Of a stretch of 64,000 bases of DNA, positions 27,632-61,208 are shown piece by piece (the first letter of the stretch is position 1; every line of letters starts with the position of its first letter). Both the position numbers and the translations under genes were made by a program. A model generated the notes under the pieces. The model searched no databases and was not told where the DNA came from. It saw only the letters and a list, made by a program, of their open reading frames with translations. This DNA is from an uncultured Bacteroidota bacterium (GTDB taxonomy: Bacteria > Bacteroidota > Ignavibacteria > UBA10030): contig CAVUAC010000063.1 in assembly GCA_963739335.1 (NCBI GenBank), positions 36,672 through 100,671 of the forward strand, in the 5' to 3' direction.

Positions 27632-27644
27632 CTTTGCAGGTGCA

Positions 27645-34035: not shown

Positions 34036-34100
34036 TCCGAGATGTGATTGAAAAGAAAAAGACCTAAGCCGTCGGCCTGGATGCTGACCGATGGGGCTGA

Positions 34101-34132
34101 GGTCTCTGGACTCGGAGGTCTCTTGGACTCTA
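34101..34132. promoter_or_regulatory. Second copy of the tandem GGTCTCT(N)GGACTC boxes
   Basis: GGTCTCTGGACTCGG-a-GGTCTCTTGGACTCTA, 63-97 nt upstream of the start at 34035. Confidence 0.55.
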
Positions 34133-36112: not shown

Positions 36113-36136
36113 AAGTTAGCCGAGCTCCTCCTAGGA

Positions 36137-40833: not shown

Positions 40834-41867
40834 TATGATGGCCCAGTCCCTTTTAACAGTTTCAATGCTGCTTCGTATGCGTCCTTGAAATCAAGCCCTG
40901 TATCTAAGTTCGGGTCGATCTTCTTGAACCCGACATACATGAAGCTAAGCAGCTGAAGTCCAGAAAACTGTTCTTGAGGTATCGACTTGAGTGAGTACCG
41001 CCTGTCAGCCTTCGTAAAGTCAATTCCTGCCGTTCCAAGCGTCCCAATCTCGAAAGCGATGCTCTTTATCTCTTCGGATGTCATGTGCTCGAATCGCTCA
41101 AGAGCATTCATAAGATACATCACCGTGGCTGGTTCTTTCAACTTGAGTAGCTCTGGGTTCGTCGTCCCCTGTGGATGCTCCTTCATCGGGACGTCGTCTC
41201 TGAACTCGAACCACTCTCGGAGCCTGAGTATCTCGGCAAACTTGCCAACGAGCTTGTACTCATCTGCTGCACCAATGTCCTTATACATATCAAGCCAAAC
41301 ATGGAAGAGCTTGTCGCCTGTTGCAAAGACGTTGGATGCCTTATAGAGCTTGGTGTATTCAGTCTTCCCTTTGTAGAGCCAATCTGCGAACAGAGCATAA
41401 GAGGTATTCATCGCAACATTGGCTTGATAGATCTTTCGCGGAGTGAGCTTCTGAACGTCTTCGGAAGTCAGAACAGCGGCGTTCTCTTGTTGGGTGGAGT
41501 ACAATGAAACGAACTGAAATGGACGAATGTGCGGATACCGATGGAAGAGACGGTACTCAATCACCATGTCAAGAGGACAATTGAAAAGTTGGTTGGTCAA
41601 TCCCGACACCCACTCCAGTGTTAACCGATTGGCCTCGTCACTCGGAATCCCAGTTTGACGCAGTTTGTACTTATCATCTCCAAGCGATTGAAGCGCCTTC
41701 TCCACTGTCGCGTTGGTCGTTACGAACAGTTTGCTTTTGCCAGCATTGCGTGCTTCGAACTCGAGCGTGATGTGCTCCAATTCATGAGCAAGCAAGTGGG
41801 GGACGATGGAAGGCAAGTTGGGTCGGTAGATAATCTTGTGCTCAGGTCCGATTGTTCTTCCACGCAA
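40833..41867 (-). CDS. HExxH zinc-metallopeptidase-like protein
   Basis: It has HLLAHELEHITLE. The listed start is a TTG, and the frame overlaps the end of the TPR ORF by 26 nt, so the two may be one frameshifted gene. Confidence 0.55.
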   Translation of the reverse strand: MRGRTIGPEHKIIYRPNLPSIVPHLLAHELEHITLEFEARNAGKSKLFVTTNATVEKALQSLGDDKYKLRQTGIPSDEANRLTLEWVSGLTNQLFNCPLDMVIEYRLFHRYPHIRPFQFVSLYSTQQENAAVLTSEDVQKLTPRKIYQANVAMNTSYALFADWLYKGKTEYTKLYKASNVFATGDKLFHVWLDMYKDIGAADEYKLVGKFAEILRLREWFEFRDDVPMKEHPQGTTNPELLKLKEPATVMYLMNALERFEHMTSEEIKSIAFEIGTLGTAGIDFTKADRRYSLKSIPQEQFSGLQLLSFMYVGFKKIDPNLDTGLDFKDAYEAALKLLKGTGPS

Positions 41868-42777
41868 GTTGGGTTTTGGCAGTCACCCCTTTGAGTTCGT
41901 CATCCCGAACTATTTCAACAGGGAAGCCCGTCACTTTTTCGATGGTCTTGCACCTCTCGTCGATGAACTTCGTCAGAGCTTCATTGGGCTTTTCAGCGAG
42001 GTCTTTGTTCAGTTGCAGGTACATCGCACGAGCCTGTTCATAGACAGGTGCACTCCGTATGTCAGGTGAAGGTTCTTGGCTGAACAACTCATCCAATGTA
42101 CCGAGAGCCGACTGATTATCGTTCTGTTTCGATTGAAGAACAGCCAGTCCTAGGAAGGAGTTTGGGTATTGAGGGTTGAGGCCGATTGCACGTCTAAAAA
42201 GATGGCTTGCCTCTTCATGTGCACCCTTCTCTGCTTTCAACGCTGCGTATGCATTCAGTAGGTAGGGGTCATCAGGATTGAGTTCGTATGCCTTCCTGTA
42301 GAACGGTTCAGCCGAATCGGGGTCGTGCTCAGACCCGAAGTAGATGTTGCCCAGGAGCACGTAGCCCCACACATCCTTTGGGTCTAATCGTAGGACATCT
42401 ATCAACTGATTCTTTGCCTCTTCTACGTCGCCTCCCTCCATGTTTGCCATTGCCAAATTCCTACGAGCGTCGTTGTGATACGGAAAGTATTCGAGACTCT
42501 TCTTCAGGATTTGGATAGCCCCACGATAGTCACCCTGCTTCGCCTTGTTGATTCCTCGTTCAAACAACCTTTGAGCTTCTTCGATTGCCTTCTCCTTCTG
42601 CTCGGGAAGGTTAATAACCGCCACTCCGTTCTCGATTGAGACCTCAACAGCAAAGGAGAGAAATCCATATGATTTCTTGATTAGGGCGATGGCTTGCTCA
42701 TCCGGCAGTTTGGTTAGATCAATTTTCTCGTCGGCGTCAACGAGAAAGTCTTTGAGGGCAATGAGGACGATTGACAT
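41842..42777 (-). CDS. TPR-repeat protein
   Basis: Several TPR units: GDYRGAIQILKKSLEYFPYHNDARRNLA..., EEAKNQLIDVLRLDPKD..., AEPFYRKAYELNPDD..., EEASHLFRRAIGLNPQY. Confidence 0.7.
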   Translation of the reverse strand: MSIVLIALKDFLVDADEKIDLTKLPDEQAIALIKKSYGFLSFAVEVSIENGVAVINLPEQKEKAIEEAQRLFERGINKAKQGDYRGAIQILKKSLEYFPYHNDARRNLAMANMEGGDVEEAKNQLIDVLRLDPKDVWGYVLLGNIYFGSEHDPDSAEPFYRKAYELNPDDPYLLNAYAALKAEKGAHEEASHLFRRAIGLNPQYPNSFLGLAVLQSKQNDNQSALGTLDELFSQEPSPDIRSAPVYEQARAMYLQLNKDLAEKPNEALTKFIDERCKTIEKVTGFPVEIVRDDELKGVTAKTQLAWKNNRT

Positions 42778-42849
42778 TGGTTTGGGTCACCGAGGCAAAT
42801 ACTGTCCGCAGACAGGCTTGCTGAAGGCTCTTTCCCTACGGGTCATCAG

Positions 42850-42869
42850 TCCATTCACGTGTGAATGGA
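42850..42869. promoter_or_regulatory. Palindromic operator candidate TCCATTCAC-GT-GTGAATGGA
   Basis: It has 9-bp perfect arms and lies in the divergent spacer between the TPR operon (minus) and the DpnD-like gene (plus). Confidence 0.45.
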
Positions 42870-43117
42870 TCCTGAACCATCAAATCTCTGTTTTGACAGT
42901 TCTTTCAGCAAGCCCGATGTAAAAGTAAGACAAAATCAGCCAAAATCAACCTTGAGGTTGACCCCTGATAATGACCGCGTTGTGTGGAGTCCGGACCAGG
43001 ATCCCCGCTTCTATGCCGCGAGTTTCCTGCCGCCAGAAATTGCGCCGGTTGGAACTGCCAAGGAGTCTTGCTTGATTCTACTTTTCTCTCCGAATACCTT
43101 GGTGCGGGAGATTATTC

Positions 43118-43342
43118 ATGGGTGAAAAGAAACCATACGATGTAGAGTGGTTCATCATACAGGTGACTCTCAAAGCCGACTATACGCTCGCGATTCCTGC
43201 AGGAAGCAAGGAAGAGGCAGTGATGTCTGCGTACAGTAGGAGGATTCCAGTTGATAGTCTTCATAACGTTGAGAAAGACGTTGTGAAGGTTATGAAGATA
43301 AAGCAACAGTGCGACAGGATTGAATTGGAAACCCTGCAATGA
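43118..43342 (+). CDS. Small DpnD/PcfM-like protein (74 aa)
   Basis: WFIIQVTLKADYTLAIPAGSKEEAVMSAYSRRIPVDSLHNVEKDVVKVMKI aligns with 33518..33721. Confidence 0.5.
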   Translation: MGEKKPYDVEWFIIQVTLKADYTLAIPAGSKEEAVMSAYSRRIPVDSLHNVEKDVVKVMKIKQQCDRIELETLQ

Positions 43343-43378
43343 GAGCAATAAGCTGCTCGATGTGGGAACGTGCTATCA

Positions 43379-44374
43379 TCATCCTTCCGACGGGACAATC
43401 TTCACCCAAAGAGGTCTGTGGTCAGAAATGTAGTACCTGCAGTAAGTGAAGAAGTCGGCATGCTTCTTCTTGCCTCCGGTGTTCTGGTACAGATCTGCGA
43501 AAATCATCTGGTCATAATCGAACACACCCGTTTCCTCAGTCACGTGATGTTGCGTCGTTGGAAAGAACATTATCTGGTCATAGTGGTTGACCTGTTTGGC
43601 GACATTTCTGTCTTGTCCTGGAAGAGTTGAGCCGATAGAAGTGGCGTGGACGGTGGAGTGGAAGCCGTTCTTGGAGAAAATCTTGTATATCGGGTCTTCC
43701 TCTTCCATATACGGGAGATTGAAATCACCGAGCAAGAGAATGTCTTTTTCGGTTGCATACTTTGAGGCCACCATTGACTTCGCCCATTGAGCCATCGCAA
43801 GTGCTTCCAGTTGTCTTCGTTGTATGGCGATCTTCTGTTCACTCTTGCCTTTGAAATAGAGGTGGGCGTTTACAAGGCAGAACTTGAAGTCCTTGAAGGT
43901 AAACGACTGCAAGAAAGGATTGCGGTCAAATCCTTGGAACTGGACTTTGGCTCCGGGGATGGTGATTCGCTTGAAGTGGCTCGGAGGCGGAGCAATCTCA
44001 CCGACAAGTTCACGAGTGCTCAGCTTGTCGACATCGAAGACAAATGTCATCCGCTCAACGTTCCCTGCAAGATCAGTGTAGAGCACTCGATATTTGCTCC
44101 CCAAAAATCCCATCAGTTCTTGAAGGTGATCAAGATTGCTACCCATCTCCTGCAAGGCGATAATGTCAAACCATCCGATGATTTCTGACATGAGGTGGAT
44201 GTCGTCTGGTCGTCGCTCTTGCACTCCGAAGTTGGCGAGATTCCATGTGGCCAACAGTAAGCTGCGCTGGTCCTTCTCTGGAATCTTCCGATCCACCTTG
44301 TGCTTGCGAAGAGCTTCCAGCTCCGTTTCGACCTTGTAGATGTATGTGAACTTGGGTTTTGGGTTTGCGCGCAT
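43379..44374 (-). CDS. Endonuclease/exonuclease/phosphatase (DNase I-like) family protein
   Basis: It has LLLATWNLANF, FDIIALQEM, LLLGDFNLP and YISDHRPLWVKI. Confidence 0.8.
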   Translation of the reverse strand: MRANPKPKFTYIYKVETELEALRKHKVDRKIPEKDQRSLLLATWNLANFGVQERRPDDIHLMSEIIGWFDIIALQEMGSNLDHLQELMGFLGSKYRVLYTDLAGNVERMTFVFDVDKLSTRELVGEIAPPPSHFKRITIPGAKVQFQGFDRNPFLQSFTFKDFKFCLVNAHLYFKGKSEQKIAIQRRQLEALAMAQWAKSMVASKYATEKDILLLGDFNLPYMEEEDPIYKIFSKNGFHSTVHATSIGSTLPGQDRNVAKQVNHYDQIMFFPTTQHHVTEETGVFDYDQMIFADLYQNTGGKKKHADFFTYCRYYISDHRPLWVKIVPSEG

Positions 44375-44816
44375 GGCAAGCTCCTTTAGATTAAGGCCTT
44401 TTTTTCACGAAAAACCTTAATGTGCCGCGTTATTCACGATGGCAACTGTTATTGGTGCAACTTGAACAACGAACGATGGGACGGTTCGGTGCGTTCTGTA
44501 CGCGACGCGAATCTATCGACTGGGAGGCATACTGTCAATACCTAAAACGCGGTATTTTTGTATCTGAGCTTACAGCACGCAGAAAGCAACCGCCGGACGG
44601 CAGAAAGCAGCGATTAACAAGCGATCAGAGTGATAACGGCCCATCCAAAATGGCCTCTAAGCTGCAGGGAAGCATTGAAACGATTGTGTCGATATCAAGT
44701 CGCCTGAAGTGCCGACATTTCCGCGCAAGCAGAAATCCGTACAGATGAGGATATGGGTAATGAGTATTTGAGTAGTAAGTATGTAGGAGGGCCGATAGAG
44801 CGAAGGTCAAGAATCG

Positions 44817-44839
44817 GGGTGGCTGGCCTGCGCCACCCC
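44817..44839 (-). terminator. Hairpin just downstream of the AAA_24 gene
   Basis: GGGGTGGC-tggcctgc-GCCACCCC. The T tract on the minus sense is modest. Confidence 0.4.
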
Positions 44840-44852
44840 GGTTCAACCGAGC

Positions 44853-45830
44853 CTATGACCCAATCGCCTGGGAAACAGACTGCAATTGACGGCGTCTCGA
44901 ATCAATGGCTGTGGCGATCCGCTTGCCCTGATCCTCAATAAGCCTCTTGGAGCTGATCCCCTTAAGCCTACTCTGCTCGATAGAGTTCAGTCGGTCAACA
45001 GTAGTTGCTTTTTGGATTGCTTCCAACATCGCTACGGCTTCCTTCTCGCCTGTCAAAAAGCCTGACTCATTGAACATCGGCGTCCCGATTGACGCAACAA
45101 CGGTCGCAGCCGGCGCCGGTTGTTGACCTCGGTCGAGCCATTCGAGAATCTGCTTGCCGATCTTCTCGTCCGGTTTGGAAACCAACCTGCCGTCAAAGAG
45201 GCTTGACCGATCTTTCGTGGACTGGGCGTTGTGGTTAAGGTCGAGATCGAACACGATGTCGAACTCATAGTCCATGCCCTCGCGTTGCACGGGGGCAAGT
45301 CCAACCTTCTTCGGGACTGACTTCCCCTTCTCGTTCGTCTCAACAACGTAGTCCATCTTCGAGCGCATCGTTGCGATAAGATGAAGCTTGGAGCGAATCA
45401 TTGCCTCGATGAAAGCGTTGTGCTGGGGTGTGAGTTTGCGCCAGGCCGTGAAACTATTCATGCCGCCATCAGCCATTTTGCCCTGTGTATCGAGCAGGCC
45501 ACCCTCGCCTGCCCAGGCATGAGAGATGCTGTCTAGGATGAGCACATCGTAGGCGGCAGCCTCGGCCTGGTGGATAGCTTTGATGTACTTGTCGATCTCA
45601 AATGGGGGTTCGATGTTGAGAACATCGAAGTCGATGCGGTCGGCATAGAGCACGCTGGAGTTGTTCTCGGTGTCGACGAGGGCGATCCTCTGGCCAAGGC
45701 CAGAGGCAAGTTTGAGTGCCGAGAGGGTTTTCCCGGATCCTGCTGCGCCGCAAAGACCGATGCGGGCTTTCTTGACGATGCGTTGGGCTTTTTGGAAGCC
45801 AGAGAGTTGAGATGATGATGTGGTGTTCAT
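44853..45830 (-). CDS. Phage-type AAA_24 / Sak4-like RecA-fold ATPase
   Basis: KARIGLCGAAGSGKTLSALKLA holds the Walker A motif. It also has VLILDSISHAW and LIATMRSK. Confidence 0.75.
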   Translation of the reverse strand: MNTTSSSQLSGFQKAQRIVKKARIGLCGAAGSGKTLSALKLASGLGQRIALVDTENNSSVLYADRIDFDVLNIEPPFEIDKYIKAIHQAEAAAYDVLILDSISHAWAGEGGLLDTQGKMADGGMNSFTAWRKLTPQHNAFIEAMIRSKLHLIATMRSKMDYVVETNEKGKSVPKKVGLAPVQREGMDYEFDIVFDLDLNHNAQSTKDRSSLFDGRLVSKPDEKIGKQILEWLDRGQQPAPAATVVASIGTPMFNESGFLTGEKEAVAMLEAIQKATTVDRLNSIEQSRLKGISSKRLIEDQGKRIATAIDSRRRQLQSVSQAIGS

Positions 45831-45893
45831 GGTGAATCTCCTTGTACTGGAATGATGGAGTGATGGATTAATGAACAGGTGAGCGTTCCATTT

Positions 45894-46391
45894 CTAGAAC
45901 GTGACCTGCAGAGTTGAGCCTTGAGCAATGAATCGCGCCGGGTGGATGATTTCCCCGGATGCGGTATCGGCGACCTCAGCCGGGAGGTTTTCAAGGAATT
46001 TCTTCCGGGCCTTGAGCTTCTCTTCGATCGCCTTCTTCTGAGATTCGAGGTCGTCGATGATGCTGTCCTGATACTCGTACTTCTTTGGGAGGGATTTGAG
46101 TTGGACCTTCGCGCCGCAGACGTCTGCGCTCGTTCCCGGCATTGAGTTGATTGCCCGGTCTTTGATTCGTCCGAGCGCCTGGTCGAGAATGTCGGCGACA
46201 TTCCGGATGCGGACGTAACCTTCGATGGCTGACTGCTCCTCGAGCAGGGCGTCAGTCAAAGCTCCGGCATAGGTGGCGAATTCAGCCTTTGGAACGACAC
46301 GGTGAAGTACAGTCAAGTGCTCGGACTGGACCGGACCCGCTTCTATGACCTCGGGAAAGAATTCGTCTTGTGGTTGATTGTTTGACTTCAT
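45894..46391 (-). CDS. Phage-like protein, possibly Gp157-type, upstream of the Sak4-like gene
   Basis: ATG 46391 follows AAGGAG. It has a helical/coiled C-terminus. The assignment rests on position only. Confidence 0.45.
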   Translation of the reverse strand: MKSNNQPQDEFFPEVIEAGPVQSEHLTVLHRVVPKAEFATYAGALTDALLEEQSAIEGYVRIRNVADILDQALGRIKDRAINSMPGTSADVCGAKVQLKSLPKKYEYQDSIIDDLESQKKAIEEKLKARKKFLENLPAEVADTASGEIIHPARFIAQGSTLQVTF

Positions 46392-46481
46392 GGTGTTGGT
46401 CTCCTTATTGTGCGTTGCCATGCGCACCCCGGTTGTTAGTGTTTTTGTCATGCTTTTCTTCGGACCCATTCTCTCGGGGGA

Positions 46482-46927: not shown

Positions 46928-47514
46928 ATGAGAGAGGAGCGATGTATCTTCGTTTTGTTCGAGGGAATTTTCGATTGCCGATTTGCGATTGACGATTTGG
47001 GGGCGGCTGGCGCAGAGAGAGAATGGCGTAGGCAGTTTTTGCGTCGATGAGGTCCGAAGTGGCTGCAAAAACTGTGACAGCCGCCGCTGTTCACAACGTG
47101 TGGCAATTACGCCGAGGACGAAGGAGCGAACGGAGCGGAGTGACTAAAGAGATACCACTCTTATGAATGATTAGAAGGTGGAACGAAGCGGAGTGAGTGA
47201 CAGAGTTGAGGCGTTATTGCTACCGGAAGCTTTTGGCGAGGCGGCATGAAGCGACCCCCGCTATACTGGATTTTAACTTGGCGGGGGCGAAGCCGCACGT
47301 GTCTATGTGCGCTAGGAAATTTCACGTGCGGGCGCTTGATGCCGCCGTGTGGGGGGATAGGATCTTTGCGTGAGTTTCAGGATCGAACGGTTTTAGACCT
47401 ACTACCTGCCAGCAGGCAGGCGTTTTGGGCTGCGGTATAGGTGGAGGTCGGGATACTGTTTGTTCAATCCACTTCTCTTTCCTGACGATCTCTGGCTTGG
47501 CTATTACTTGGCGC

Positions 47515-47546
47515 GAGGCGCCGTCAGGTTGAGCGAGCGGTTAGGT
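47515..47546 (-). repeat. Half attC site (R''-L'' side only) terminating array 2
   Basis: ccGTCAGGTTGAGCgagcGGTTAGGTg matches the high-coordinate halves of the other array-2 sites. No partner GCCTAAC...GCTAAGC was found in 47400-47515. Confidence 0.5.
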
Positions 47547-47557
47547 GACCACACCTA

Positions 47558-48743
47558 TTAGGTTGAAAGATTCTTGCTGATGAAATTGCGATCAATTATC
47601 GAGACTCCGCCGCCAAGAAAATGGACGTTACCGCGTTGAAAATAGGGCACCGAAGGCTTTTTGATGTCGATGACAAACATCACTTTGCGTGGATCGTTGA
47701 GGAAGTGCTCTTCTATGTATGCATTGATTCTTGAGTCGCCAAATCCATATCCAACGACGATTAGGTTGATCGACTCACTCAAGTTGTTGCGAAAGTGTTC
47801 TAGTAAGATCGGGTAGTAAGTTCCATGTTGGGTACTGGCTTACCTTGTGGGTCGTACCGGAAAGGAAATCTGCTACAACGTCTGATGGCCTGTGAGCATA
47901 TTCGAGTTTTCCATTGTTTGAGAGCTGCTTGTGGATTTCATGGGATGAGAGGCCCCAAGGGATCTTCACAAGATCGGATTGATCGCCAAAGCTTGCCCAG
48001 AAATTGTCTATGCTCCCATGAAGCTTATAAAGGCAAAAAGGTTGCTCGTACTTGTTTGTGAACCTGCGAAGCCTGACCATGTAGGTTGCATACTTATCAT
48101 ACTTCTTGGCAAAAATATCTGAACCTAAGTCGTCAAATCCGTCATCCATGCAACCTTGTATTGTGTCAGTAAGAGAGAACTGCTCGAAATAGAGATCATG
48201 GTTGAGTGTGTGAATGTGGACAGTATGATGATTGGCAAAATCCTCAAGCATCAAGAGAAAGTCACTGTATCTTGGGTCGTACGGCTTACACTGATGTACT
48301 CGTTCAATCGGTTTCGTGAGTTGTTGCGCGAGGAGTTGCGAAAATGTGTCATTGAACTGCATCAATATGTGGTGGATGTCTGAGATAACCTTGTTCTGGC
48401 GACGGAAATCAGTCAGGAACTTCAGCAAATGGTGAGAGTACGATTGAGTGCGGTAAGCAGAAATGTAATAGTCGTAGAAGGTCTCATAATGAAACGATTC
48501 GCCCGGTCGGAGCACTTTTGAATTGTAGAATGCAAGGAATTCTTGCACGAAAACCCGCTCTTCGACACCCATCCAGGACGCGTTTGGATCAGGTTGACCA
48601 TTGAGAAACCAAGCTTCACGACTTGTGTGAACGCAAATCTCAGAGGCAACAATTGTGCACAGGCGAAGATTGAGCTTTGAGGTTGTTGGATAGCCCGCAG
48701 GTACTGAGAAGCCTGATCCGATCAGCAAGGATAGTTTCTTCAT
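47558..48743 (-). pseudogene. SIR2_2-family (SIR2-like) cassette protein split by one frameshift
   Basis: The N-terminus is MKKLSLLIGSGFSVPAGYPT. The C-terminal ORF 47558..47782 reads INLIVVGYGFGDSRINAYIEE. The alternate frame reads ..TYYPILLEHFRNNLSESINLIVVGYG and is open only from ~47842. Confidence 0.65.
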
Positions 48744-48762
48744 GTATTTGAGCGGTGTGGTG

Positions 48763-48920
48763 GCCTAACGATGGCGGCTAAGCCGCGGGAACGAAAACTT
48801 TCAAGATAGTTGTACACGAAACAAGTTCCGCGTAGATTATTTCCTAAATTCACTCGACCTATGCAAGCCATGCTAATTGTACCGACACTCCTTCCGTCAG
48901 GTTGAGCGACTGTAACGCCG
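48763..48920 (-). repeat. attC site of array 2
   Basis: Plus strand: GCCTAAC-gatgg-CGGCTAAGCCGC ... GTCAGGTTGAGC-gac-TGTAACGC. Confidence 0.65.
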
Positions 48921-48930
48921 CATCTATTCG

Positions 48931-49383
48931 TCAGCAAAGTGTCTTCCAAATCAATACGAACCAGAAACACAAGGTTGAGGCAGGAAGTAGCCATACAAGT
49001 ACGAATTTGCCGGAGGGGTGTCTGTGCACCGCCTCCATGTAAATCTTATACGTTGGATCGCCGGTCATGAGGCGCTCGTTTAGCGGTTGCATGCGCGCAG
49101 CAAGCCGCTTGCTCATGTAGAACCAACCAAGGGTGTAGATCACGCCTAAGGAAGCGATGGCCATACGGAATGTCTGGGCTGCGTAGCCTTCGTGAGGTAT
49201 CGTAAAAAAGGCGACAACCAACATGGATTGGGCGACAAGGGAGAAATTCTGGCGCGCGTACTGAAGTGTATCTGCGTGCTGCAGATATTTCCAGGTGTGA
49301 TCAAGATCTAGCAAATCAGGACGCTTAGCGTTATTTTGGGGTTTCTTCGACAAGATTCTATTCCTTAATTGAGAGTGCGGCAT
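48931..49383 (-). CDS. Cassette protein: small 2-3 TM membrane protein
   Basis: Hydrophobic segments are FSLVAQSMLVVAFFTI, MAIASLGVIYTLGWFYM and FVLVWLLPASTLCFWFVLIW. Its ATG lies inside the attC core (GTTATGC). Confidence 0.6.
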   Translation of the reverse strand: MPHSQLRNRILSKKPQNNAKRPDLLDLDHTWKYLQHADTLQYARQNFSLVAQSMLVVAFFTIPHEGYAAQTFRMAIASLGVIYTLGWFYMSKRLAARMQPLNERLMTGDPTYKIYMEAVHRHPSGKFVLVWLLPASTLCFWFVLIWKTLC

Positions 49384-49526
49384 AACGGACGGCAGCTAAG
49401 CTGCGGAGTAGACTGTCTCGGACTTCACTGTCCCGAGCGTTGGCTGATGCAAATTCATTCATGTGTGTGGGCATTAGTTTTCACCGACGCTCAGTGCGTC
49501 AGCTTGAGCCGCTGGTTAGGCGGGCC
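49379..49526 (-). repeat. attC site of array 2
   Basis: Plus strand: GGCATAAC-ggacg-GCAGCTAAGCTGC ... GTCAGCTTGAGC-cgct-GGTTAGGC. Confidence 0.75.
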
Positions 49527-50341
49527 TCACTATCGGCCTCGGGCTCTGGTGACTTTGGTTTCGGGACAACCTCGTGAAACAACTTGGCTATTCGAGGATT
49601 TGCGGTGTCAGAGTTCATACGAACAGAATATGTATGACTTTCCCGAAGCACCTCTGTTGAACAGATGAAATCAACCTTTCTGTAGAAGGGGCTTGTCTTA
49701 GAGACAACCTCGTATCTATACCGATACAGGCGTTGAACTGAAAGATATTTGCTCTCAATAATGCGTATGGTAATGCGCTGACCTAGCATTTCTACGCTAC
49801 CGAGCTTGGTCACCTCCTTTGAGCGCTTCCTTCGAACTGTACTAACTGCTAATGGCTTGTTCAGCGGAATCGAGGCAGATTGTTTCGCGAGCTTGTCAAC
49901 GGCTCTGTTGAAGATGTCGGAGGAATGTGCCTTCACCTTTTGGAATTCAACTCTTGCTCTGGTTTGGCGAATTGCCTTTATCAAGTTCTTCCATAGTCGT
50001 GCATTAAGAACCGGTGCTCCAGATTTCTTCAGCCACCTAGTTCGCGGCCATAGAAACATCGCATTCTTGTAGTTTGTGAAAACATAATTGGAGTCTGTGA
50101 GAATTATGATCTTGCGGAATTGCCGTTTCTCCAAATAGGGCCCTGCGTTTTCGAGTGCAACAATGCAAGCGTTGATTTCCATCTCGTTGTTCGTGGCACT
50201 CTTGTAGCCTGGCAAATTCAAAGGCTCGGAGACTTCCTTCCCATTGTGATCTACGTAAACAAAGATAACTCCGATGCCGCCTCTTCGGGGCCTTGACTTA
50301 GAAGATACCATCTGTATAGATGTTGAGCGCCCGTTCGTCAA
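49499..50341 (-). CDS. Cassette protein: RNase HI-like domain plus ~130-aa unknown C-terminal domain
   Basis: It has TNNEMEINACIVALE, IIILTDSNYV and VKAHSSDIFNRAVDKLAK. The first catalytic Asp of the DEDD set is not evident at the N-terminus. The stop lies inside the attC. Confidence 0.65.
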   Translation of the reverse strand: MTNGRSTSIQMVSSKSRPRRGGIGVIFVYVDHNGKEVSEPLNLPGYKSATNNEMEINACIVALENAGPYLEKRQFRKIIILTDSNYVFTNYKNAMFLWPRTRWLKKSGAPVLNARLWKNLIKAIRQTRARVEFQKVKAHSSDIFNRAVDKLAKQSASIPLNKPLAVSTVRRKRSKEVTKLGSVEMLGQRITIRIIESKYLSVQRLYRYRYEVVSKTSPFYRKVDFICSTEVLRESHTYSVRMNSDTANPRIAKLFHEVVPKPKSPEPEADSEARLTSGSS

Positions 50342-50370
50342 TCATTGGAGATATCTGTGATGCCAACTCA

Positions 50371-50508
50371 GGCCCGCCTAACAGCCGGAGCTAAGCTGCA
50401 GCGAGACCAACGTGAGCATTAGGTACTACACGAACCATAGACCTACCCTAGCAATGGAGGCTTGACCGCTGCCCGTTACGTCAGCTTAAGCGACGGCTTA
50501 GGCGGGCA
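50371..50508 (-). repeat. attC site of array 2 (textbook architecture)
   Basis: Plus strand: GCCTAAC-agccg-GAGCTAAGC ... GCTTAAGC-gacgg-CTTAGGC. On the minus sense R' reads GTTAGGC. Confidence 0.8.
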
Positions 50509-50509
50509 C

Positions 50510-51514
50510 TCATTTCAGTTCCCGTTTCACGTGGTACGGAACACGAGGCACGCCGAGATGCAGTCCCTCAGGATAGACAGTGGCAATCTGATTCAGTTGC
50601 CGGCCGTCCGGTCCGAATGCTGTGATCCAAGGCGTCTGAAGGTCTTGGATCATCTTCTTGTCTTGATCGTAGAAGCAGGTGCCCAATGTGACGGCTATTG
50701 AGATGGGGCTTCCGGTCAGCGAACCGCTTGTCAACGTCGCCCCGGAATGGGTCATATCGAAACGGATTGCGAGCTGAGTTGGATTCTCTGTGGCAAAAGG
50801 GGTTACGTGGTGGTCTATGAGTTCATTGGGAGCAATCTGCCAAGCGCTCACGCTTTGGGCGACTTCGGACTTCAGAGACTGGTCCAGAAGTTGGGTAATT
50901 GACTTGATGTCTGGCTTCAATTCGTCATGAGGGATGGAACTGAGGTACGAATCAATGTCGCCAAAGACTGCAAGCAAGAGCTTTTGCGTATGAATCTCGG
51001 CTGACAACTGGGGATGCAGTTCATTCGAAGTCGCCCAGAAGGCTTTGTCGTCCGTGATTAGGACCGCCTCGTTACTGCGTGCCACGTCGACAATGGTCTC
51101 CCAGATAACGCTATCGCGGAACTGCTCCTCGCGATGTGAGGGAGGGACATGTAAGATGACGCGTTGTACGGCTGAATCAAACTTAGAGTGGTCCTTCGGA
51201 CTCTCCAGTATGAGAGGCGAAAGCCTTTGAAGGCGATCCGAAATGGCCTTCACCAGCTCCCCTTCAACGGGCCATTTTATGCCGGGTTTCGTTCCAGTGA
51301 GAGCTTGTAGGGTAACCAATTCCCTCTCGATGCGCTGAATTGTGGTTTGGCACTCGGCGAGGACTCTCTCTTCGACCTCACAGCGAACTATCCAAGGCAA
51401 AAGAATCTGGGATTTGGTGTTCTTGAGGGAGAAAAGGAAGGCGGCGGCCACAGACGAGCGCAGGAGGCGTTCCTTAATCCAAACATTCGCGTCGAGGCAA
51501 ATGAGGCGTTCCAT
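50510..51514 (-). CDS. Cassette protein: N-terminal PIN-like domain plus C-terminal extension
   Basis: It has MERLICLDANVWI and ...VLITDDKAFW (acidic PIN-type residues). It is 334 aa. Confidence 0.6.
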   Translation of the reverse strand: MERLICLDANVWIKERLLRSSVAAAFLFSLKNTKSQILLPWIVRCEVEERVLAECQTTIQRIERELVTLQALTGTKPGIKWPVEGELVKAISDRLQRLSPLILESPKDHSKFDSAVQRVILHVPPSHREEQFRDSVIWETIVDVARSNEAVLITDDKAFWATSNELHPQLSAEIHTQKLLLAVFGDIDSYLSSIPHDELKPDIKSITQLLDQSLKSEVAQSVSAWQIAPNELIDHHVTPFATENPTQLAIRFDMTHSGATLTSGSLTGSPISIAVTLGTCFYDQDKKMIQDLQTPWITAFGPDGRQLNQIATVYPEGLHLGVPRVPYHVKRELK

Positions 51515-51540
51515 GGAATTGTGGATGGGTGATGGTTGAG

Positions 51541-51755
51541 TGCCCGCCTAACGGATGGCCGCTAAGCTGCGGCACTGAAAACATTGAAATTGTACTACAC
51601 GAACCGAGTTCATGCGCTTCACCTTCGGTCTTGTACCTGTACCTATGCTCGCCATGAATTTTGCAGTGCGCTCATCCGGTAAGCTTGCCTGTTTACCCCA
51701 CCTATTCTGTCGGGGCCCCGCTGTTATTTAGCGGGGAGTCGCTGGTTAGGCAGCA
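51541..51755 (-). repeat. attC site of array 2 (long, ~215 bp)
   Basis: Plus strand: GCCTAAC-ggatg-GCCGCTAAGCTGC ... cggggagtcgct-GGTTAGGC. Confidence 0.7.
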
Positions 51756-51763
51756 TTGCCGAG

Positions 51764-52228
51764 CTAGATGTTGCGTTGAATCGAATCAATTACCGCGTTG
51801 TAGTCCGATATTCTTGCTTCTAAGATGCTCTTAGACAATCTGATTGGCTTGCGTCCGGCGTACCAGTTTGGGTGAACCAAGTTCCGAAATTTCCTAATGC
51901 GCTCGGATGCCTGAAAAGCATTATGATCCAACAGCCCATTTTGGTATGCAAGCTCACTGAGGTCTTTCAGAGTCCAGTGCTCACTCAACTTTCTGTGTCG
52001 TGCATATACCACTTCCGGGAATGCCCGTGTCCAAGCAGCAAGCATATATTCCACACCGGCACCTATCAACACGATGGCTGCTAGGTATGCGCTGACATCT
52101 TGACACTTTTTCATCTCCCTTCGACACCGATTGATGAACCGATAGAGAGATTGAGAAGACAGCCTTTTTCGTCTCCGGATTGTCTTCATTGGCAATGCTA
52201 CCTCACGCTCAGCTTCAGCGGGAGCCAC
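51764..52228 (-). CDS. Cassette protein with HEPN-like R-x6-H motif
   Basis: It has a TM/helix AAIVLIGAGVEYMLAAW and then ...ASERIRKFRNLVHPNWY. Confidence 0.55.
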   Translation of the reverse strand: MAPAEAEREVALPMKTIRRRKRLSSQSLYRFINRCRREMKKCQDVSAYLAAIVLIGAGVEYMLAAWTRAFPEVVYARHRKLSEHWTLKDLSELAYQNGLLDHNAFQASERIRKFRNLVHPNWYAGRKPIRLSKSILEARISDYNAVIDSIQRNI

Positions 52229-52261
52229 CGGCGATCCGCTGTAAGCCGTTGTTAGACCTCT

Positions 52262-52786
52262 TTATATTTGCTCCAAGAGCAGAAGTAACTCCTCGAAGGC
52301 ATCAATACCTTCTTGCATAGACTCGAATCTTTTCTTTGTTGTCCTTGACCGAGGTTCATGTTTGAACTTATTCACTCGGCTTCGGGCTCTGTTGATGTTA
52401 CTCAGTGTTTTTCCATAGCTCGTCTCATACCATTCTGAAAGCCACGGATATAAGGGAGGCGGTTTCGTTTTTGCTTTTTGTTCGAAGAGCACTTTCAATG
52501 CGATTTCTGTGAGAGCTACCATTCTAAACATAGCATTATTGAAGTAATAGCCGCTTTCCCACTCCCTATTACCCGCTTTGGAAGAGCCCAAGGACTTGAT
52601 TCCGAGAACTATGCTGTCTTGCTTGCCTTTTGGCAGTCTTGAAAAAGCATCTTCCTTATAGTTCAGCGCATATGCCCTCTTTAGAGATAGATATGTCGAG
52701 ACCAACCACGATCTATCTATTACGTCGGGTAGCTTCGGGACCAACGGAGTCAATCTTTTCCCAATTTGATTTAGTCTCTTCTTCAT
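52262..52786 (-). CDS. Cassette protein with HEPN-like R-x5-H motif
   Basis: It has ...NRARSRVNKFKHEPRS. Only a GTTAGAC core (52249-52255), with no full attC, separates it from the next ORF. Confidence 0.55.
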   Translation of the reverse strand: MKKRLNQIGKRLTPLVPKLPDVIDRSWLVSTYLSLKRAYALNYKEDAFSRLPKGKQDSIVLGIKSLGSSKAGNREWESGYYFNNAMFRMVALTEIALKVLFEQKAKTKPPPLYPWLSEWYETSYGKTLSNINRARSRVNKFKHEPRSRTTKKRFESMQEGIDAFEELLLLLEQI

Positions 52787-52792
52787 TTTGTG

Positions 52793-52866
52793 GTCTAACG
52801 CGGCGCTCAGCCGCCGGCGAAGCCGGTCGGCTGTAGCGGCTTGTTGGGCGCTAGAGACGACAGCCG
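52793..52866 (-). repeat. Short (~74 bp) attC site of array 2
   Basis: GTCTAAC-gcggcgctcaGCCGCCGGC-gaa-GCCGGTCGGC...gggcgc-TAGAGAC. The stop of the upstream cassette (52807) lies inside it. Confidence 0.6.
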
Positions 52867-53874
52867 ATCGAACACACGCCCGTTCGACGAGAACGGTACA
52901 CCAAGACGGTGCCTCAGCAATTCGGCGGCGACGTCCTCAAGCAAGTCTGTTCGCGCTGCCAGGTCATCTGGCGCATCGAGCGCCTCGTGCACGATTCTTC
53001 CTCGAACGTCGTACAGGTGCTTAATCTCCAACACACGCTCGACATCTGCCTTACGAAGCTGAGACCGATGCGAGGTCTGATTCCAATGCGACGTCAGAGC
53101 TTCAGCAACCCTGCCAACTTTGCCGCCTTTCGCTTTCACGAACAGGGTGGCGAATTCACAGCACTCCCAGAGGTCGCAGTACCTGTCGATCGGATCCGTC
53201 TCTGTCTGCGAAGTTACGTAACGGCGAGCCGCAACGCTGACAGCTTGCGCCGAGTCTCTGTCTAGTTCCGCACGGATGCGCACGAAGCGGTCGATGGCCT
53301 GCTTTACGGAATCCATCACTATTTCGGGCCGTTGTCGCACGGCGATAACAACGGCGTCATCAAGCTGTGATCCGTGGTCAGCGAGGGCTCGTACTTGAAG
53401 GGGCGCGACAGGCACGAGGAACTCTGCGGCGGAGAGATTGATCAGCGCAAGGACCGATATACAGATTGGCGACGCTACCCGCGCTAGCTCCTCAGCTGAC
53501 GCGGAATGCGTTAGGCCAATGTGGAGCTGGATGTCGATCTCCCCTTCATACGGTTCTTCATAGTGCAGGCTAAGGGGCAGCTCATCTTCTGGAGCCTTGA
53601 GGTAATGCATTCCCATCCAATAACCAGTCTCCATTCGACCCCGCCAGAGGATTGGACCGGCCTTCTCGAGAGGCCTGGCGGCTATGGCCTCTGGGCGATC
53701 CCGCTTCGCGTAAGTCGCGACGTGGATACTCAGCAGTAACCTGCTGCCATCGGGCAGCGGCAATGGTTCTTCATACGCGGGGAGGACACAGCGGCTCCGC
53801 TCCGGCCACACGCCCCAAGTCCGACACCTGAGTATGGCGACGTACTTGTGAGTGAACTCCTCGGTTGAGGTCAT
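52807..53874 (-). CDS. Cassette protein (355 aa), C-terminal R-x4-H (HEPN-like) region
   Basis: Long ORF with ...KHLYDVRGRIVHEALDAPDD. No other domain recognised. Confidence 0.55.
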   Translation of the reverse strand: MTSTEEFTHKYVAILRCRTWGVWPERSRCVLPAYEEPLPLPDGSRLLLSIHVATYAKRDRPEAIAARPLEKAGPILWRGRMETGYWMGMHYLKAPEDELPLSLHYEEPYEGEIDIQLHIGLTHSASAEELARVASPICISVLALINLSAAEFLVPVAPLQVRALADHGSQLDDAVVIAVRQRPEIVMDSVKQAIDRFVRIRAELDRDSAQAVSVAARRYVTSQTETDPIDRYCDLWECCEFATLFVKAKGGKVGRVAEALTSHWNQTSHRSQLRKADVERVLEIKHLYDVRGRIVHEALDAPDDLAARTDLLEDVAAELLRHRLGVPFSSNGRVFDRLSSLAPNKPLQPTGFAGG

Positions 53875-54073
53875 GAGTCTCCGATCCGTTGCTCAAACTG
53901 ACTACTCGTTACTGGTCGCCCAACCATTGATTAGAATGATCCGCCCATTATGTAGAACACTGGATCGCGATCCGTGTCGCACGCCGCTGACACTCTGGAT
54001 GCAATTGCAGCAATCCCTCCGTGTTGAGCCACTTGTGTCTCTTGGCTTTCTGTGGCATGGCGTCTTATGTGGG

Positions 54074-54210
54074 TAGACATTACGGATAGCCGCTAAGATC
54101 CAGCAACCATAATTTTCAAAATGTAATACACGAAACAAGTTCAATCACTGCGCTTTCAAATCTGTACCGCACCAATGCTCATTCTGTCAGCTTGGGCCGC
54201 TGGTTAGCCT
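54074..54210 (-). repeat. attC-like site at the upstream end of array 2 (low-coordinate core degenerate)
   Basis: Plus strand: GACATTAC-ggata-GCCGCTAAGATCC ... GTCAGCTTGGGC-cgct-GGTTAGCC. Confidence 0.55.
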
Positions 54211-54329
54211 TAGCCACCGCCGCCTTCAGCAGGATTCTTTCAGAAAGCATCTCAAAATCATCACTTGCTGACCGCTTCAATCCCAAGAAGTTACATTGAG
54301 CTGCTAAGGAGGCGCAATTGCACTTGACA

Positions 54330-56914
54330 CTATTTGAGCAACACAATTCGTTTCGTTTCCGTAAACGACGATGTCTGCAACCGGCAGAAATACACACCAC
54401 TCGGCAAATGCGCTGCATCGAATGTTGCGATGTAGCTTCCTGGTGATTTCACCTCATTGACAAGCGTTGCGACCTCTCTTCCCAGCAAATCATACACATT
54501 CAAACTGACATTTCCGAGGCTTGCTATCTGATAACTGATAATCGTAGAGGGGTTGAAGGGGTTGGGAAAGTTTTGACTCAAAGAGAATGTAGATGGTGCA
54601 ATAAGAGATGACTGCTGAACTGAGGTAGTTGGTTTCTTTCTGAGCCAACCCTGACACGAGTAACCGGTTCCCAATTGGGTGCCATCAACCTTAAAAGTTC
54701 CACCAGACCCAGTTAGCGGAAATGTGTAATTTGCATCATCTGAATTTTCCCGAACATTCTGTTGAATTACTGTTATAGACGTGCTTCCAACATTTCGAAC
54801 AATTGCTACATGCCCAGCAGAACCACCAGAAAAACAAAGGATATCTCCTACTTGTGGGGCGGTTACACCTCCATCAGGGTAACTGACAAGTTCGGGTGAA
54901 GATGGATTGCCATAATATTGATATGCATCTCGTCCCGCAATTCTGATATTTAATCCATAAATGATATAGTAATATCTATTAACATATTCTACGCATTGCC
55001 ATTTCATCCCTGTATTAACGCCTGCTGTTGAATTATAGTCATTACTAACGCACTCAACGCTGTCGTTCGAGTATGCCTCAACTCCATTGAATGATCCTAT
55101 CAACGTACCAAATACTGCTCTGCCGGTTTGCTGGGCTAGAGATCTTCGCCACACGCCGTTGCCAACAGTTCCAGCAAAGAGATTGCTACCCGAGGCGGCA
55201 AGAGACGCCACGTCAATATTCGTTAAGCCAGTATTGAATGATGTCCAACTTTTGCCGCTGTTGGTACTAACGAACACGCCGCCGTCATTAGTCCCCGCAT
55301 AAAGATTGGGGCCAGAAACTGCAAGGGAATAGACATAAGTGCCTGACAAGCCGTTATTGACTGATGCCCAACTTGTGCCGTTGTTGGTCGAAAGAAACAC
55401 GCCGCCACTAGTTCCAGCAAAGATAGTCGTTCCGGAGATTGCAAGAGCCCAAACGAGAGTGTTCGTCAAGCCGCTATTGACTGATGTCCAACTTGTGCCG
55501 TTGTTGGTCGAAAGAAACACGCCGCCATATGTCCCTGCAAGGAGATTCGTGCCAGAGAGAGCAAGAACATTAACATGAGTATCCGACAAACCACTATTTA
55601 CTTGACTCCAGTTTGTACCGTTGGTCGAAAGAAAGACGCCGCCATCAGTCCCGGCAAAGATATTCGTACCGGAGACGAGAAGAGAATTGACAAATGTGTT
55701 CGTCAAGCCGCTATTGACCGGGGTCCAACTTGTGCCGTTGTTGGTCGAAAGAAACACGCCACGATAATAAGTCCCGGCAAAGAGACTCGTGCCGGAGACG
55801 GCAAGAGCAAAGACGCGAGTGTTTGCCAAGTTGGTACTGGCCGAAGTCCAATTTGTGCCGTTGTCGGTGGAGAGAAACACACCGTCGCCAAAAGTCCCGG
55901 CAAAAAAATCCTTGCCTGAGACAGCAAGAGACGGGACATCTGTGTTCGCCAGGCTGGTATTGACTGCGGTCCAACTGGAGCCGTTGTTGGTAGAAAGAAA
56001 GACGCCGCCGCCACCCGTCCCATGATTGCCGCTCCCAGCAAAGAGATATGTGCCTGAGACTGCAAGAGTCCACACTGTAGTGTTCACCAAGCCGGTGTTT
56101 GCGGCAGTCCAACTTGTGCCGTTGTTGGTGGAAAGAAAAACTCCACCCGTTGTTCCGGCAAAGAGATTGGTGCCGATAATCGCAAGAGACAAGACCCCGT
56201 GGTACGTCAAGCCGGTATTGATAGCACTCCAGCTTGTGCCGTTGTTGGTGGAAAGAAAGACACCGGCGCCATATGTCCCAGCAAGGAGATTTGTGCCAGA
56301 GACGGCAAAAACATCAACATGAGTATTTGTGAAACCAGAACTTACCTGACTCCAATTTGTGCCGTTGTTGGTGGAAAGAAAGACGCCGCCGTCGACAGTC
56401 CCGGCAAAAATATTCGAGCCGGAGATGATAAGAGCATGGACATCAGGTAACTCGTCAAGCCGGTATTGACTGCTGTCCAAGTTGTCCCATTGTCAGTGGA
56501 AATAAAGATGCCACCGCCATTAGTCCCAGCAAATAGATTCGAGCCTGAGACAGCAAGGGCACTGGCGACATAAGTATTCGTCAAGCTACTCTGAGTCCAA
56601 TTTGTGCCGTTGTTGGTGGAAAGAAAGAGGCCGCCGGCATCAGTCCCGGCAAAGAGAGTGCTGCCTGAGACGGCAAGAGTATAGACGTGTCTACCCGTCA
56701 AGCCAGCATTGACTGATGTCCAGCTTGTGCCGTCGTTGGTGGAAAGAAAGACACCGCCGTCAAATGTCCCAGCAAAAAGTTTTGACCCTGAGACGGCAAG
56801 GGCACGAACCTCGCCGCCGTAGGGACCGTTGGTTTGGGCCCATTGACCGATTAACGGTCTTTCGAAATAAGCAACGGAAGTAATCAACAACAAAAACCGA
56901 AACACGTTTTTCAT
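54330..56914 (-). pseudogene. Secreted BNR/Asp-box repeat protein with CHAP amidase domain and T9SS C-terminal domain, split by one frameshift
   Basis: There are more than 15 repeats of GGVFLSTNNGTSWT..NTGL. The CHAP region is WQCVEYVNRYYY...GDILCFSGGSAGHVAIV. The tail is ..LPSGVYFCRLQTSSFTETKRIVLLK. ORFs 56342..56941 and 54330..56480 overlap, with the frame switch near 56450-56470. Confidence 0.75.
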
Positions 56915-57559
56915 ATACCTATTCTTTCGAGAAACGAACAATTTCGCCTAACTATGGATTATCTGGTTTCCGTGTAAGACCACGGAATCTTGCATAACAA
57001 TATAACATGCCACGGCTAGGGTTTCCAAAGGTGTTATGTGCAAACAAGCTGTCGGCGATCAGCGCACTCGCAAGAGTGTTATACGGTTTTGGCATAAAAC
57101 GCACCGCCCCACGTTCCGCGGGCAAATGAAGTTTGACAGAGATGATCACAGTGCTGGGTCGATTGTAATAGAGTATCAGGCCAAAGTCAACGTCCGGAAA
57201 CTACCGACAAGGGTGTACGTAGAAGTACCGACACCAAATCAGGGAGGATTCCCTACAGAGAGGAATAGTCTGGTATGACTGAAGGATTTCGGCCTAGAAA
57301 GAAGAATCCTCACCGATATGCGTCGATGCTGATTCTTCAGCACACTTCGTTTTCGCCTAGAGCATGTTTTGAACCGCAACCGAAGCTCATACCACTGATA
57401 TCTAACGTGAGGTTGTAAGCCTTTCAAGCAAGACTGCACGGAGCGATTGTCCTACCAATATCCGGACAAAAGAGGCTTGAGAAACGGCGATGTTTTTACG
57501 ATATCGTGGTTAGTCAAGCTCTAGAGTGAGCACTATGCACGCATTTACATGGTGCTCGA

Positions 57560-57815
57560 GGATCCCTTTAGGGCTACGGAATAATTGATAATTGTCAATT
57601 CACAATTGTCAATTGACAATTAGGGTTGGGCCTTCAACTCAACTTCCAGAGCGCCGGACGAGCGGCTGTCGGTTGGAGCATCCCGCCGTCTTGTGGCGGG
57701 AACCGAATTGACAATTTGTCCGCGCTTTCTTGTTGCATCTCTTCTTGGTCAAAACAAAAGAGGCAATTCCAAGTTTCCGGGATTGCCTCTTTGCTTTTCT
57801 ATGACGTGTTTCTGC
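57560..57815 (+). repeat. Mosaic intergenic repeat, copy 1 (ends in a terminator-like hairpin)
   Basis: ggatccctttagggctac...ataattgataattgtcaattcacaattgtcaattgacaatt...gggccttcaactcaacttccagagcgccggacgagcg...AGAGGCAATtccaagtttccgggATTGCCTCTttgcttttct. Confidence 0.75.
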
Positions 57816-60798: not shown

Positions 60799-61208
60799 GG
60801 ATCCCTTTAGGGCTACTTCCAAAACGACAGAAGTTAGCGAGCCCTCCAGGGCGAAGCTAACTTCTTTGTCGTTTTGAGAATCCCGTTGAGCGAAGCGAAA
60901 CGGGAGAGATAATTGATAATTGTCAATGCACAATTGTCAATTGACAATTATGGTTGGGCCTTCAACTCAACTTGCAGAGCGCCGGACGAGCGCTGTTCAC
61001 GAGTGGCTGTGGTTTTGAGAACCCCTTCGAACGCAGCGAGACGGCAGAAATAGTTATCAATTCACAATTGTCCCCGCTAAAATGCAGCGGGGCGCACAAA
61101 ACGCGCAATTTACAATTTGTCCGCGCTTTCTCGCTGCATCTCTTCTTCATAAATAATGAAAGAGGCAATTCCAAGTTTCTGGGATTGCCTCTTCGCTTTT
61201 CTATGTCT
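60799..61208 (+). repeat. Mosaic intergenic repeat, copy 2 (with extra palindromic insert modules)
   Basis: It has the same ends and core as 57560-57815. It has added hairpin modules, for example CAAAACGACAGAAGTTAGC...GCTAACTTCTTTGTCGTTTTG and CCCGTTgagcgaagcgaAACGGG. Confidence 0.75.

Follow-up and report, generated by a model that had tools for sequence, protein, structure and literature searches.

Which kind of element is the row of minus-strand genes at 47.5-57.1 kb of this stretch, and what became of the integrase that would have served it? The stretch, hereafter the window, comprises 64,000 nucleotides (nt) of contig CAVUAC010000063.1 from an uncultured Bacteroidota bacterium (Ignavibacteria, UBA10030). 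Our reading, to which we assign a probability of roughly 0.88, is that 47.5-57.1 kb is a minus-strand integron cassette array without an integrase gene, i.e., a CALIN (cluster of attC sites lacking an integron integrase; Neron et al. 2022, PMC9024848; also Cury et al. 2016). We refer to it as array 2, since another row of repeats in the window, array 1, is treated below. Array 2 would hold about eight cassettes, each an open reading frame (ORF) with its own attC site behind it. The cargo would be a type IX secretion system (T9SS) protein with BNR and CHAP domains, a protein of 355 amino acids (aa), two small proteins, a PIN protein, an RNase H fusion, a small membrane protein, and a SIR2-like protein. 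An attI-type insertion site appears to have been retained, and therefore the array may be seen as an integron platform that lost intI, beyond a loose cluster of sites.

attC sites of the minus-strand array

On the plus strand, the repeats have the layout GCCTAAC-7/8 nt-GCTAAGC ... GTCAGCTT(G/A)AGC-4/5 nt-GTTAGGC and span 47.5-54.2 kb. A fixed 20-nt consensus search with mismatches was dropped as too rigid (2 matches versus 1.8 expected), and gapped regular expressions and then a covariance model were used. The model, R1, consists of 62 aligned sites (alignment A1) from other genomes with zero window sequence and was run over all 64 kb with filters off. R1 matched six window sites at 33-76 bits (E 1e-8 to 5e-21) plus a terminal half site, all on the plus strand and confined to 47.5-54.2 kb. 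The best match outside the array in the whole 64 kb had 10 bits (E 0.12), and the opposite strand of the same sites gave at most 13 bits. Rfam has no family for these sites; its scan of the window matched only two tRNAs. A preliminary description of the locus had counted seven sites, of which A, B, C, D, F, and G were recovered by R1 and E was missed. The sites are as follows.

47522-47547, minus strand: terminal half attC; R1 15.5 bits, E 0.003, over 47479-47547; repeat family D4
48762-48921, minus strand: attC A; R1 75.5 bits, E 4.5e-21, over 48762-48919 (plus strand)
49379-49522, minus strand: attC B; R1 64 bits; hairpin fold; start codon of the next ORF inside R' (GTTATGC)
50375-50504, minus strand: attC C; R1 44 bits; single hairpin closing the R and L boxes, z = -2.5
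51545-51753, minus strand: attC D; R1 60.9 bits over 51545-51699
52196-52258, minus strand: site E, doubtful; short hairpin between the c174 and c154 ORFs; layout read by eye; R'' GTCTAAC, R' GTGAGGT (expected GTTRRRY)
52792-52850, minus strand: attC F; R1 33.4 bits; 59 nt; fold of -20.8 kcal/mol, z = -4.0
54076-54210, minus strand: attC G; R1 56.1 bits, E 2.5e-15, on the plus (bottom) strand; abuts an attI-like segment

An attC site is defined by 5'-RYYYAAC-3' in R' and 5'-GTTRRRY-3' in R'' on the bottom strand, an imperfect hairpin, an extrahelical G in L'', and a T on the L'' arm with a 6-bp stem between them (PMC5027507). Sites A, B, C, D, and F have GCCTAAC and GTTAGGC or one-off variants, which are RYYYAAC and GTTRRRY cores; GCTT(G/A)AGC pairs with GCTAAGC, and B, C, and F each fold as one hairpin that closes both boxes. 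In the family consensus, TAAC pairs with GTTA and GCTAAGCTG with CAGCTT-G-AGC, and two bases of the 3' arm, a G (column 162) and a T (column 155), bulge out with six pairs between them. In the fold of attC F, two T bulge from the 3' arm at a distance of six bp. In a MAFFT alignment of the family, 99.1% of the cells pair, compared to at most 46% with slid partners, and compensatory changes occur in five pairs, which was reached by none of 500 shuffles. The repeats of array 2 are genuine, canonical integron attC sites with every testable defining feature. Indeed, the earlier claim of a minus-strand cassette array with such sites is borne out by R1, by the attC geometry, and by the G↓TT cassette boundaries described below (the arrow marks the junction). 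The plus strand folds as the attC bottom strand and would thus be the recombinogenic one; hence, the cassettes are read on the minus strand, as are all cassette ORFs of array 2.

The sites differ in how well they are preserved. Site E gave no R1 match at E ≤ 10, its fold is weak (z = -1.45), and it is at best a degenerate short attC, which we regard as doubtful. The R'-side core of attC G is degenerate (CATTAC, GCTAAGA; top strand GTAATGT). At the other end, only the R''/L'' half at 47522-47547 is present, as had been described; L'-R' is missing, there is no hairpin (z = 0.01), and this half site is the distal end of the array. The site lengths, previously given as 74-215 bp, are about 57-209 nt, and the longest site, attC D, is inflated by a 49-nt hairpin. 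It is an ordinary site of about 155 nt with an insertion at 51688-51736 (the nhmmer match stops at 51687) that directly follows GCTTG, where L'' has its extrahelical G.

In attC sites of different genomes, small GC-rich hairpins (CCCGCC...GGCGGG or CCCCGC...GCGGGG) interrupt the sequence just before the L'' AGC: at 51688-51736 in the window and in the loci L013 (6591-6744), L025 (7634-7830), L120 (2072-2335), and L053 (5466-5750). The insertion point lies around the extrahelical G, after GCTTG in four sites and after GCT in L053, and in other long sites the loop contains hairpins of this kind. The inner portion of the long sites, which is conserved, was also considered as a promoter. This idea was dropped, with sigma-70-like matches at chance and full-length conservation being normal for attC sites of chromosomal integrons; those integrons of this type that are sedentary have a variable terminal structure which is both long and conserved (PMC5027507).

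The same attC family is widespread. An exact-pattern scan with GCCTAACN{7,8}GCTAAGCYGCRG, one genome per species, found at least 119 eight-kb blocks, mostly from Ignavibacteriota or "Bacteroidota bacterium" metagenome-assembled genomes (MAGs) of soil, peat, fen, and groundwater. Many of these blocks have 3-6 exact matches per 8 kb on a single strand, and in CAWGZY010000005.1 at least 9 of the first 12 eight-kb blocks (1-96 kb) carry the pattern. A profile search gave 555 family sites across 107 sequences, with length modes near 150 and 190 nt and a median inter-site interval of 617 bp. The dominant ORF is on the cassette strand in 363 of 391 inter-site intervals; one adjacent pair switches strand.

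Furthermore, eight fetched loci contain full-length homologues of the integron integrase (IntI) with a mutual identity of 45-58% over more than 310 residues. The one scanned with NCBIfam TIGR02249, that of L017, scored 485.9 bits (cut-off 265). The gene is divergent from the cassettes in L009, L014, L024, L103, L104, and L042 and co-directional with them in L017 and L061. By this co-occurrence, the attC family of array 2 is, as it appears, the one used by an integron integrase. Comparison with related genomes, which the preliminary description had proposed, thus revealed the same family in one-strand arrays of Ignavibacteriota/Bacteroidota MAGs, with IntI homologues in eight loci.

In the window, the integrase is absent, and the earlier label "CALIN-like" was apt. 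Across the 64 kb, a scan for the catalytic motifs was negative, tblastn with the L017 IntI gave a best E of 0.76, and a hidden Markov model of the eight family IntIs run against all stop-to-stop segments in six frames gave a best E of 0.19. For an IntI remnant upstream of the T9SS gene (57.1-58.3 kb), there was only a 24-aa tblastn match (E 0.76), and the family profile found nothing there.

Head of the array and probable loss of intI

Further evidence comes from the head of the array, where three features lie next to each other.

53919-54083, minus strand: attI-b, attI-like segment of 165 bp between attC G and the cassette of the 355-aa protein (c355)
54330-56941, minus strand: T9SS cassette ORF(s), overlapping ORFs 54330-56480 and 56342-56941; likely ATG at 56914
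56947-57100, minus strand: attI-a, less certain second attI-like module of about 150 nt, directly upstream of the T9SS ORF; starts TTATGCC..CCGTATAACAC, in parallel to attI-b

The c355 cassette had been taken to be bounded by attC G, which did not hold, as attI-b intervenes. This segment is 79.5% identical over 156 nt to positions 2761-2916 of L017 and 78% identical over 164 nt to positions 4034-4197 of L053 (JBEKIL010000005.1). It ends TCTAATCAATGG↓TTGGGC, where the first cassette (c355) begins with the junction G↓TT. Its counterpart in L017 begins 18 nt past the intI stop and ends TCTAATCAATG↓TTAGCC, where the first cassette starts. In L053, a stub of the last 12 intI codons (GPAGVRSPVDGL, followed by the stop) stands in front of the same attI type, which by sequence is an independent, differently placed loss of intI (3935-4033). 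The stub is preceded by unrelated sequence that contains GTTATGC. The end motif [AC]TAATC-xAT(x)G↓TTAGG marks the attI position both in L017 and L053 and in the divergent-type loci L104 and L024. A scan of metagenomes with a conserved 22-mer of attI yielded two contigs with ORF and attC layouts matching L017 and L053, and these are probably the same organisms. In sum, 53919-54083 is a putative attI of a co-directional integron, to which IntI would bind; its arrangement we take to be like the L/R layout of attI1. A 49-codon ORF within it (53931-54080) was rejected as a gene: there is no excess of substitutions at third positions ([12,9,11], [13,8,13], [9,10,5]), and it is probably noncoding.

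The T9SS gene had been regarded as chromosomal, with the array starting after it. Contrary to this view, full-length homologues in L096 (3085-5211) and L090 (4166-6322), with 41-43% aa identity, have an attC site on either side and the orientation of a cassette, and a partial homologue (~41% over 432 aa) is likewise flanked by attC sites in L025 (5500-6747). With the window protein as the tblastn query, 36 of 119 fetched loci were matched, and T9SS sorting domains are thus a frequent cassette cargo. The protein has Sortilin-Vps10, BNR, CHAP, and Por_Secre_tail domains (Pfam). A homologue search gave thousands of distant relatives and zero near-identical copies with which the cassette boundaries might be tested. 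Judging from its homologues, the T9SS gene is itself probably one of the cassettes, with attC G as its own site, and not the chromosomal flank; if so, the array reaches to about 56.96-57.10 kb. Upstream of this gene, attI-a ends with the simple-site motif GATAATCCATAG↓TTAGGC (56947-56963), a second copy of the attI end motif, and the R'-like GTTAGGC at 56947-56953 is 32 nt ahead of the likely T9SS ATG. The assignment of attI-a is less certain, because its similarity beyond the two ends is weak and the call relies on short motifs.

That cassettes of this array have moved is indicated by c355. Copies with 90% identity are present on the soil-metagenome contigs L121-L125 with three different sets of neighbours, and in each of these contigs the c355 homologue is followed by site F, i.e., the same 59-nt attC. 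In the five contexts, nucleotide homology of the cassette starts exactly at G↓TTGGGCGACC and stops at ...GCG↓TT. By this sequence comparison, the breakpoints are those of the canonical G↓TT crossover and the c355 cassette of the window is demonstrably mobile.

The most likely layout, as predicted from these comparisons, is attI-a, T9SS cassette with attC G, attI-b, seven cassettes, and half site. In the intact locus L017, intI is directly upstream of attI and co-directional with the cassettes; in the window, an attC-bearing T9SS cassette would abut the attI segment instead. The array may descend from a single integron platform, or from two, in which intI was deleted, and would now be a parked, passive reservoir of accessory genes, some of them defence or toxin-like. 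Where the AAC triplet is intact (A, B, C, D, and F), the sites could be excised or reshuffled only with IntI supplied in trans, and expression would need a promoter upstream of the array or inside the cassettes.

As to how intI was lost, it is imaginable that IntI joined attC G to an R'-like TTATGCC, located at that edge of attI which faces intI, and so excised its own gene. The junction reads G↓TAATGTC in the window versus c↓TTATGCC in L017 and L053. We consider this route rather unlikely and put it forward tentatively. If true, an integron can "disarm" itself, which would be a concrete way for a complete integron to become a CALIN, and the locus would consist of two tandem attI platforms (attI-a with the T9SS cassette and attI-b with seven cassettes), the integrases of which were both lost.

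Cassette genes and the rest of the window

Downstream of attI-b, the following ORFs are present.

52807-53874, minus strand: c355 ORF, 355 aa; 39 homologues found, none with a known domain
52262-52786, minus strand: c174 ORF, 174 aa; from the ORF list
51764-52228, minus strand: c154 ORF, 154 aa as listed
50510-51514, minus strand: PIN-domain ORF, 334 aa; Pfam PIN_12, E 3.4e-11, 44.3 bits, cut-off 32
49499-50341, minus strand: RNase H ORF; Pfam RNase_H, E 2.1e-23, residues 13-156
48931-49383, minus strand: small hydrophobic ORF, 150 aa; Pfam matches sub-threshold only
47558-48743, minus strand: SIR2-like ORF, last cassette; two frames, 47775-48743 (322 aa) and 47558-47782 (74 aa)

Three of these proteins, c355, c174, and c154, had been called HEPN-like. 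None of them matched anything in Pfam, NCBIfam, or PADLOC, even at E 5, and the call thus found no support in Pfam or in the fold of c355. A search of the PDB with the AlphaFold model of c355 (predicted local distance difference test score of 83.8) gave nothing significant, with a best E of 0.16 and HEPN entries only at E ~2.4. Arg291-x4-His296 is nearly invariant among 31 homologues, and a HEPN-like active site in c355 is possible. Distant c355 homologues are found in L126 beside genes for an OLD-family ATPase and a UvrD-family helicase, a pairing which we take to resemble the Gabija defence system, and in L127 in a methylase/Vsr island. The true start of c154 is probably the ATG at 52189, which would give 141 aa; most of its 37 homologues have about 141 aa. 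One homologue, in L132, has an attC of the array-2 family directly after it. Those in L130 and L131 are in cassette-like gene rows without R1-type sites, and site E as a boundary was not confirmed by them.

The PIN and RNase H calls, in turn, are borne out by Pfam. The RNase H ORF has a C-terminal extension of about 120 aa and scores 84.5 bits on the NCBIfam model for ribonuclease HI, which is under the equivalog cut-off. The SIR2-like call found a weak echo in PADLOC, with SIR2/Aga_SIR2 matches for both pieces (E 1e-7 and 3e-6). L001, an independent Logan contig from the same organism, is 99.8% identical to the window over 47057-51592 with colinear cassettes, and an alignment of these 4.5 kb has five small (1-2 nt) indels as well as three mismatches. 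A 1-nt state in L001 restores a SIR2-like ORF of 394 aa, and the frameshift is probably an assembly indel in an intact gene. Window and L001 are frameshifted differently in this gene, and a mix of both states gives the intact 394-aa ORF. Apparent pseudogenes in the window need caution.

Array 1 (21085-29130, plus strand) has repeats of about 160-200 nt with the layout ATAAC-4 nt-GGCAAACCG ... CGGTTTGCC-7 nt-GTTATGC, which fold into branched hairpins closed by a GGCAAACCG/CGGTTTGCC stem. An insertion sequence with a DDE transposase is located at 22430-23446, and the cargo includes a pPIWI-associated nuclease domain, NERD, and YaaC-like proteins. R1 gave at most 9.6 bits on these repeats, and they have no counterpart in the fetched arrays; arrays 1 and 2 are different repeat families, as had been proposed. 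A tyrosine-recombinase-like ORF (18807-19676, minus strand) adjoins array 1. Its SAM-like N-domain is recognizable, and its catalytic half is degenerate.

Between the two arrays, at 31693-46469 on the minus strand, there is a run of genes that resembles a defence island. Among its products are a sigma-54-type AAA+ protein, a HerA-like ATPase, a Schlafen-group-3 helicase (E 7e-79), a tetratricopeptide repeat protein, an EEP nuclease, and an AAA_24 ATPase; attC sites of the array-2 type are absent between these genes. A repeat of about 89 nt, rich in TTGTCAATT palindromes, occurs at 57581-57669 and 60909-60996 (95.5% identical), and a 33-nt piece of it (3981-4013) neighbours tRNA-Gln/tRNA-Glu (4093-4329) as well as a large serine recombinase gene (4154-6109, minus strand).

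Alternative explanations and comparison with known systems

Several points weigh against a platform that lost its integrase. The absence of the integrase covers the 64-kb window out of a contig of 107 kb, and the gene may possibly lie farther away or on another contig. The attC calls are based on our own model R1, in place of the attC model of IntegronFinder. Site E fails R1, and the crossover triplets of G and E are mutated (TAC and CAC), and therefore the array is decayed in part. The attC G/attI junction and attI-a each derive from one assembly that has 1-nt indels compared to the independent contig, and this contig, L001, covers 47057-51592 only. Finally, no promoter was established; 9 sigma-70-like matches were found versus 9.0 expected.

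Might the loss of intI then be a product of the assembly? The real locus would be a complete integron, and a collapse or mis-join at near-identical attC/attI repeats would have removed the gene and created the attC G-attI junction. The indels and mismatches relative to L001 and the frameshifted look of the SIR2-like and T9SS genes are in line with this, and attC repeats are known to complicate assembly (PMC9024848). However, attC G has no near-identical counterpart among the sites of the window (60-89% identities among sites), and thus there is no obvious substrate for a collapse; the colinearity of the cassettes with L001 also speaks against it, and the independent loss of intI at the same attI type in L053 argues that such losses are real in this lineage. 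We therefore consider an artefact improbable. Still less probable, to a degree that makes it remote, is a complete system served by another recombinase of the window, either the Xer-like ORF at 18807-19676, which is upstream of array 1, or the large serine recombinase beside the two tRNA genes. The former has 55-63 bits on Xer models (cut-offs >220), no match to TIGR02249, and neither box II HxxR-H nor GH...Y, and it is 28 kb distant from array 2; for the latter, we know of no serine recombinase that uses attC hairpins. Elsewhere, the attC family of array 2 pairs with a canonical IntI.

That the sites are a lineage-wide intergenic palindromic repeat unrelated to integrons, similar to repetitive extragenic palindromes (REP), bacterial interspersed mosaic elements (BIME), or terminators, is effectively refuted. 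The preliminary description had itself named such a repeat, or a failure of the attC model, as what would speak against it. Indeed, the sites are hairpin forming and intergenic and occur in several places in complete chromosomes, e.g., OY969585.1. The model matches six of them, though, and they form dense one-strand arrays strictly co-oriented with the ORFs, have core sites and the extrahelical bases specific to attC, adjoin integron integrases, and mark exact G↓TT cassette junctions, with zero copies outside the array in the window. REP/BIME repeats, in contrast, are solitary, scattered, and found in either orientation.

Compared with the class 1 site attC-aadA7, the sites of array 2 share the RYYYAAC/GTTRRRY cores, the extrahelical G in L'' with a T six bp inward, and, judging from the cassette junctions, recombination at G↓TT. 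They differ in the R-L spacers, which have 7-8 and 4-5 nt and are partly paired (canonical spacers have 5-6 nt and are unpaired), and most of the window sites are much longer. With sedentary chromosomal integrons such as the Vibrio cholerae superintegron and its repeats (VCRs), the relatives of array 2 share very large one-strand arrays (at least 96 kb in CAWGZY010000005.1) and attC sites of about 150 nt that are conserved over their full length and have branched variable terminal structures. The host, in contrast, is Ignavibacteriota/Bacteroidota-like, probably a soil bacterium, and the array of the window is short, of mixed site lengths (57-209 nt), and without an integrase. In "inverted integrase" integrons, intI is co-directional with the cassettes, e.g., in Treponema denticola. 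L017 resembles this group, since its intI, attI-like segment, and cassettes all have the same direction, and the window keeps that attI type; however, the same attC family also occurs with a divergent intI (L009, L014, L104, and L024), and the original layout of the window may only be surmised.

Array 2 belongs to an attC family that is large, has been little described, and occurs in Ignavibacteriota/Bacteroidota MAGs from soil and peat; integrons have already been reported in Ignavibacteriae and Chlorobi (PMC9024848). T9SS proteins as a common cargo and small hairpins repeatedly inserted at the extrahelical-G position are minor additions, which leave the knowledge of integron biology unchanged. 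A complete integron has intI adjacent to attI and cassettes, which is not the arrangement in the window. With CALINs, the locus shares clustered attC sites (at least two by definition, 6-8 within 7-9.5 kb here) and no intI nearby; CALINs have a published mean of about 6 attC sites and are thought to be degraded integrons (PMC9024848). The difference is that array 2 keeps one, possibly two attI-like segments that can be traced to a platform type, a feature ignored by the definition of CALINs. An integrase-less array with a retained attI would thus be a traceable example of how CALINs originate, for which L053 provides a second, independent case.

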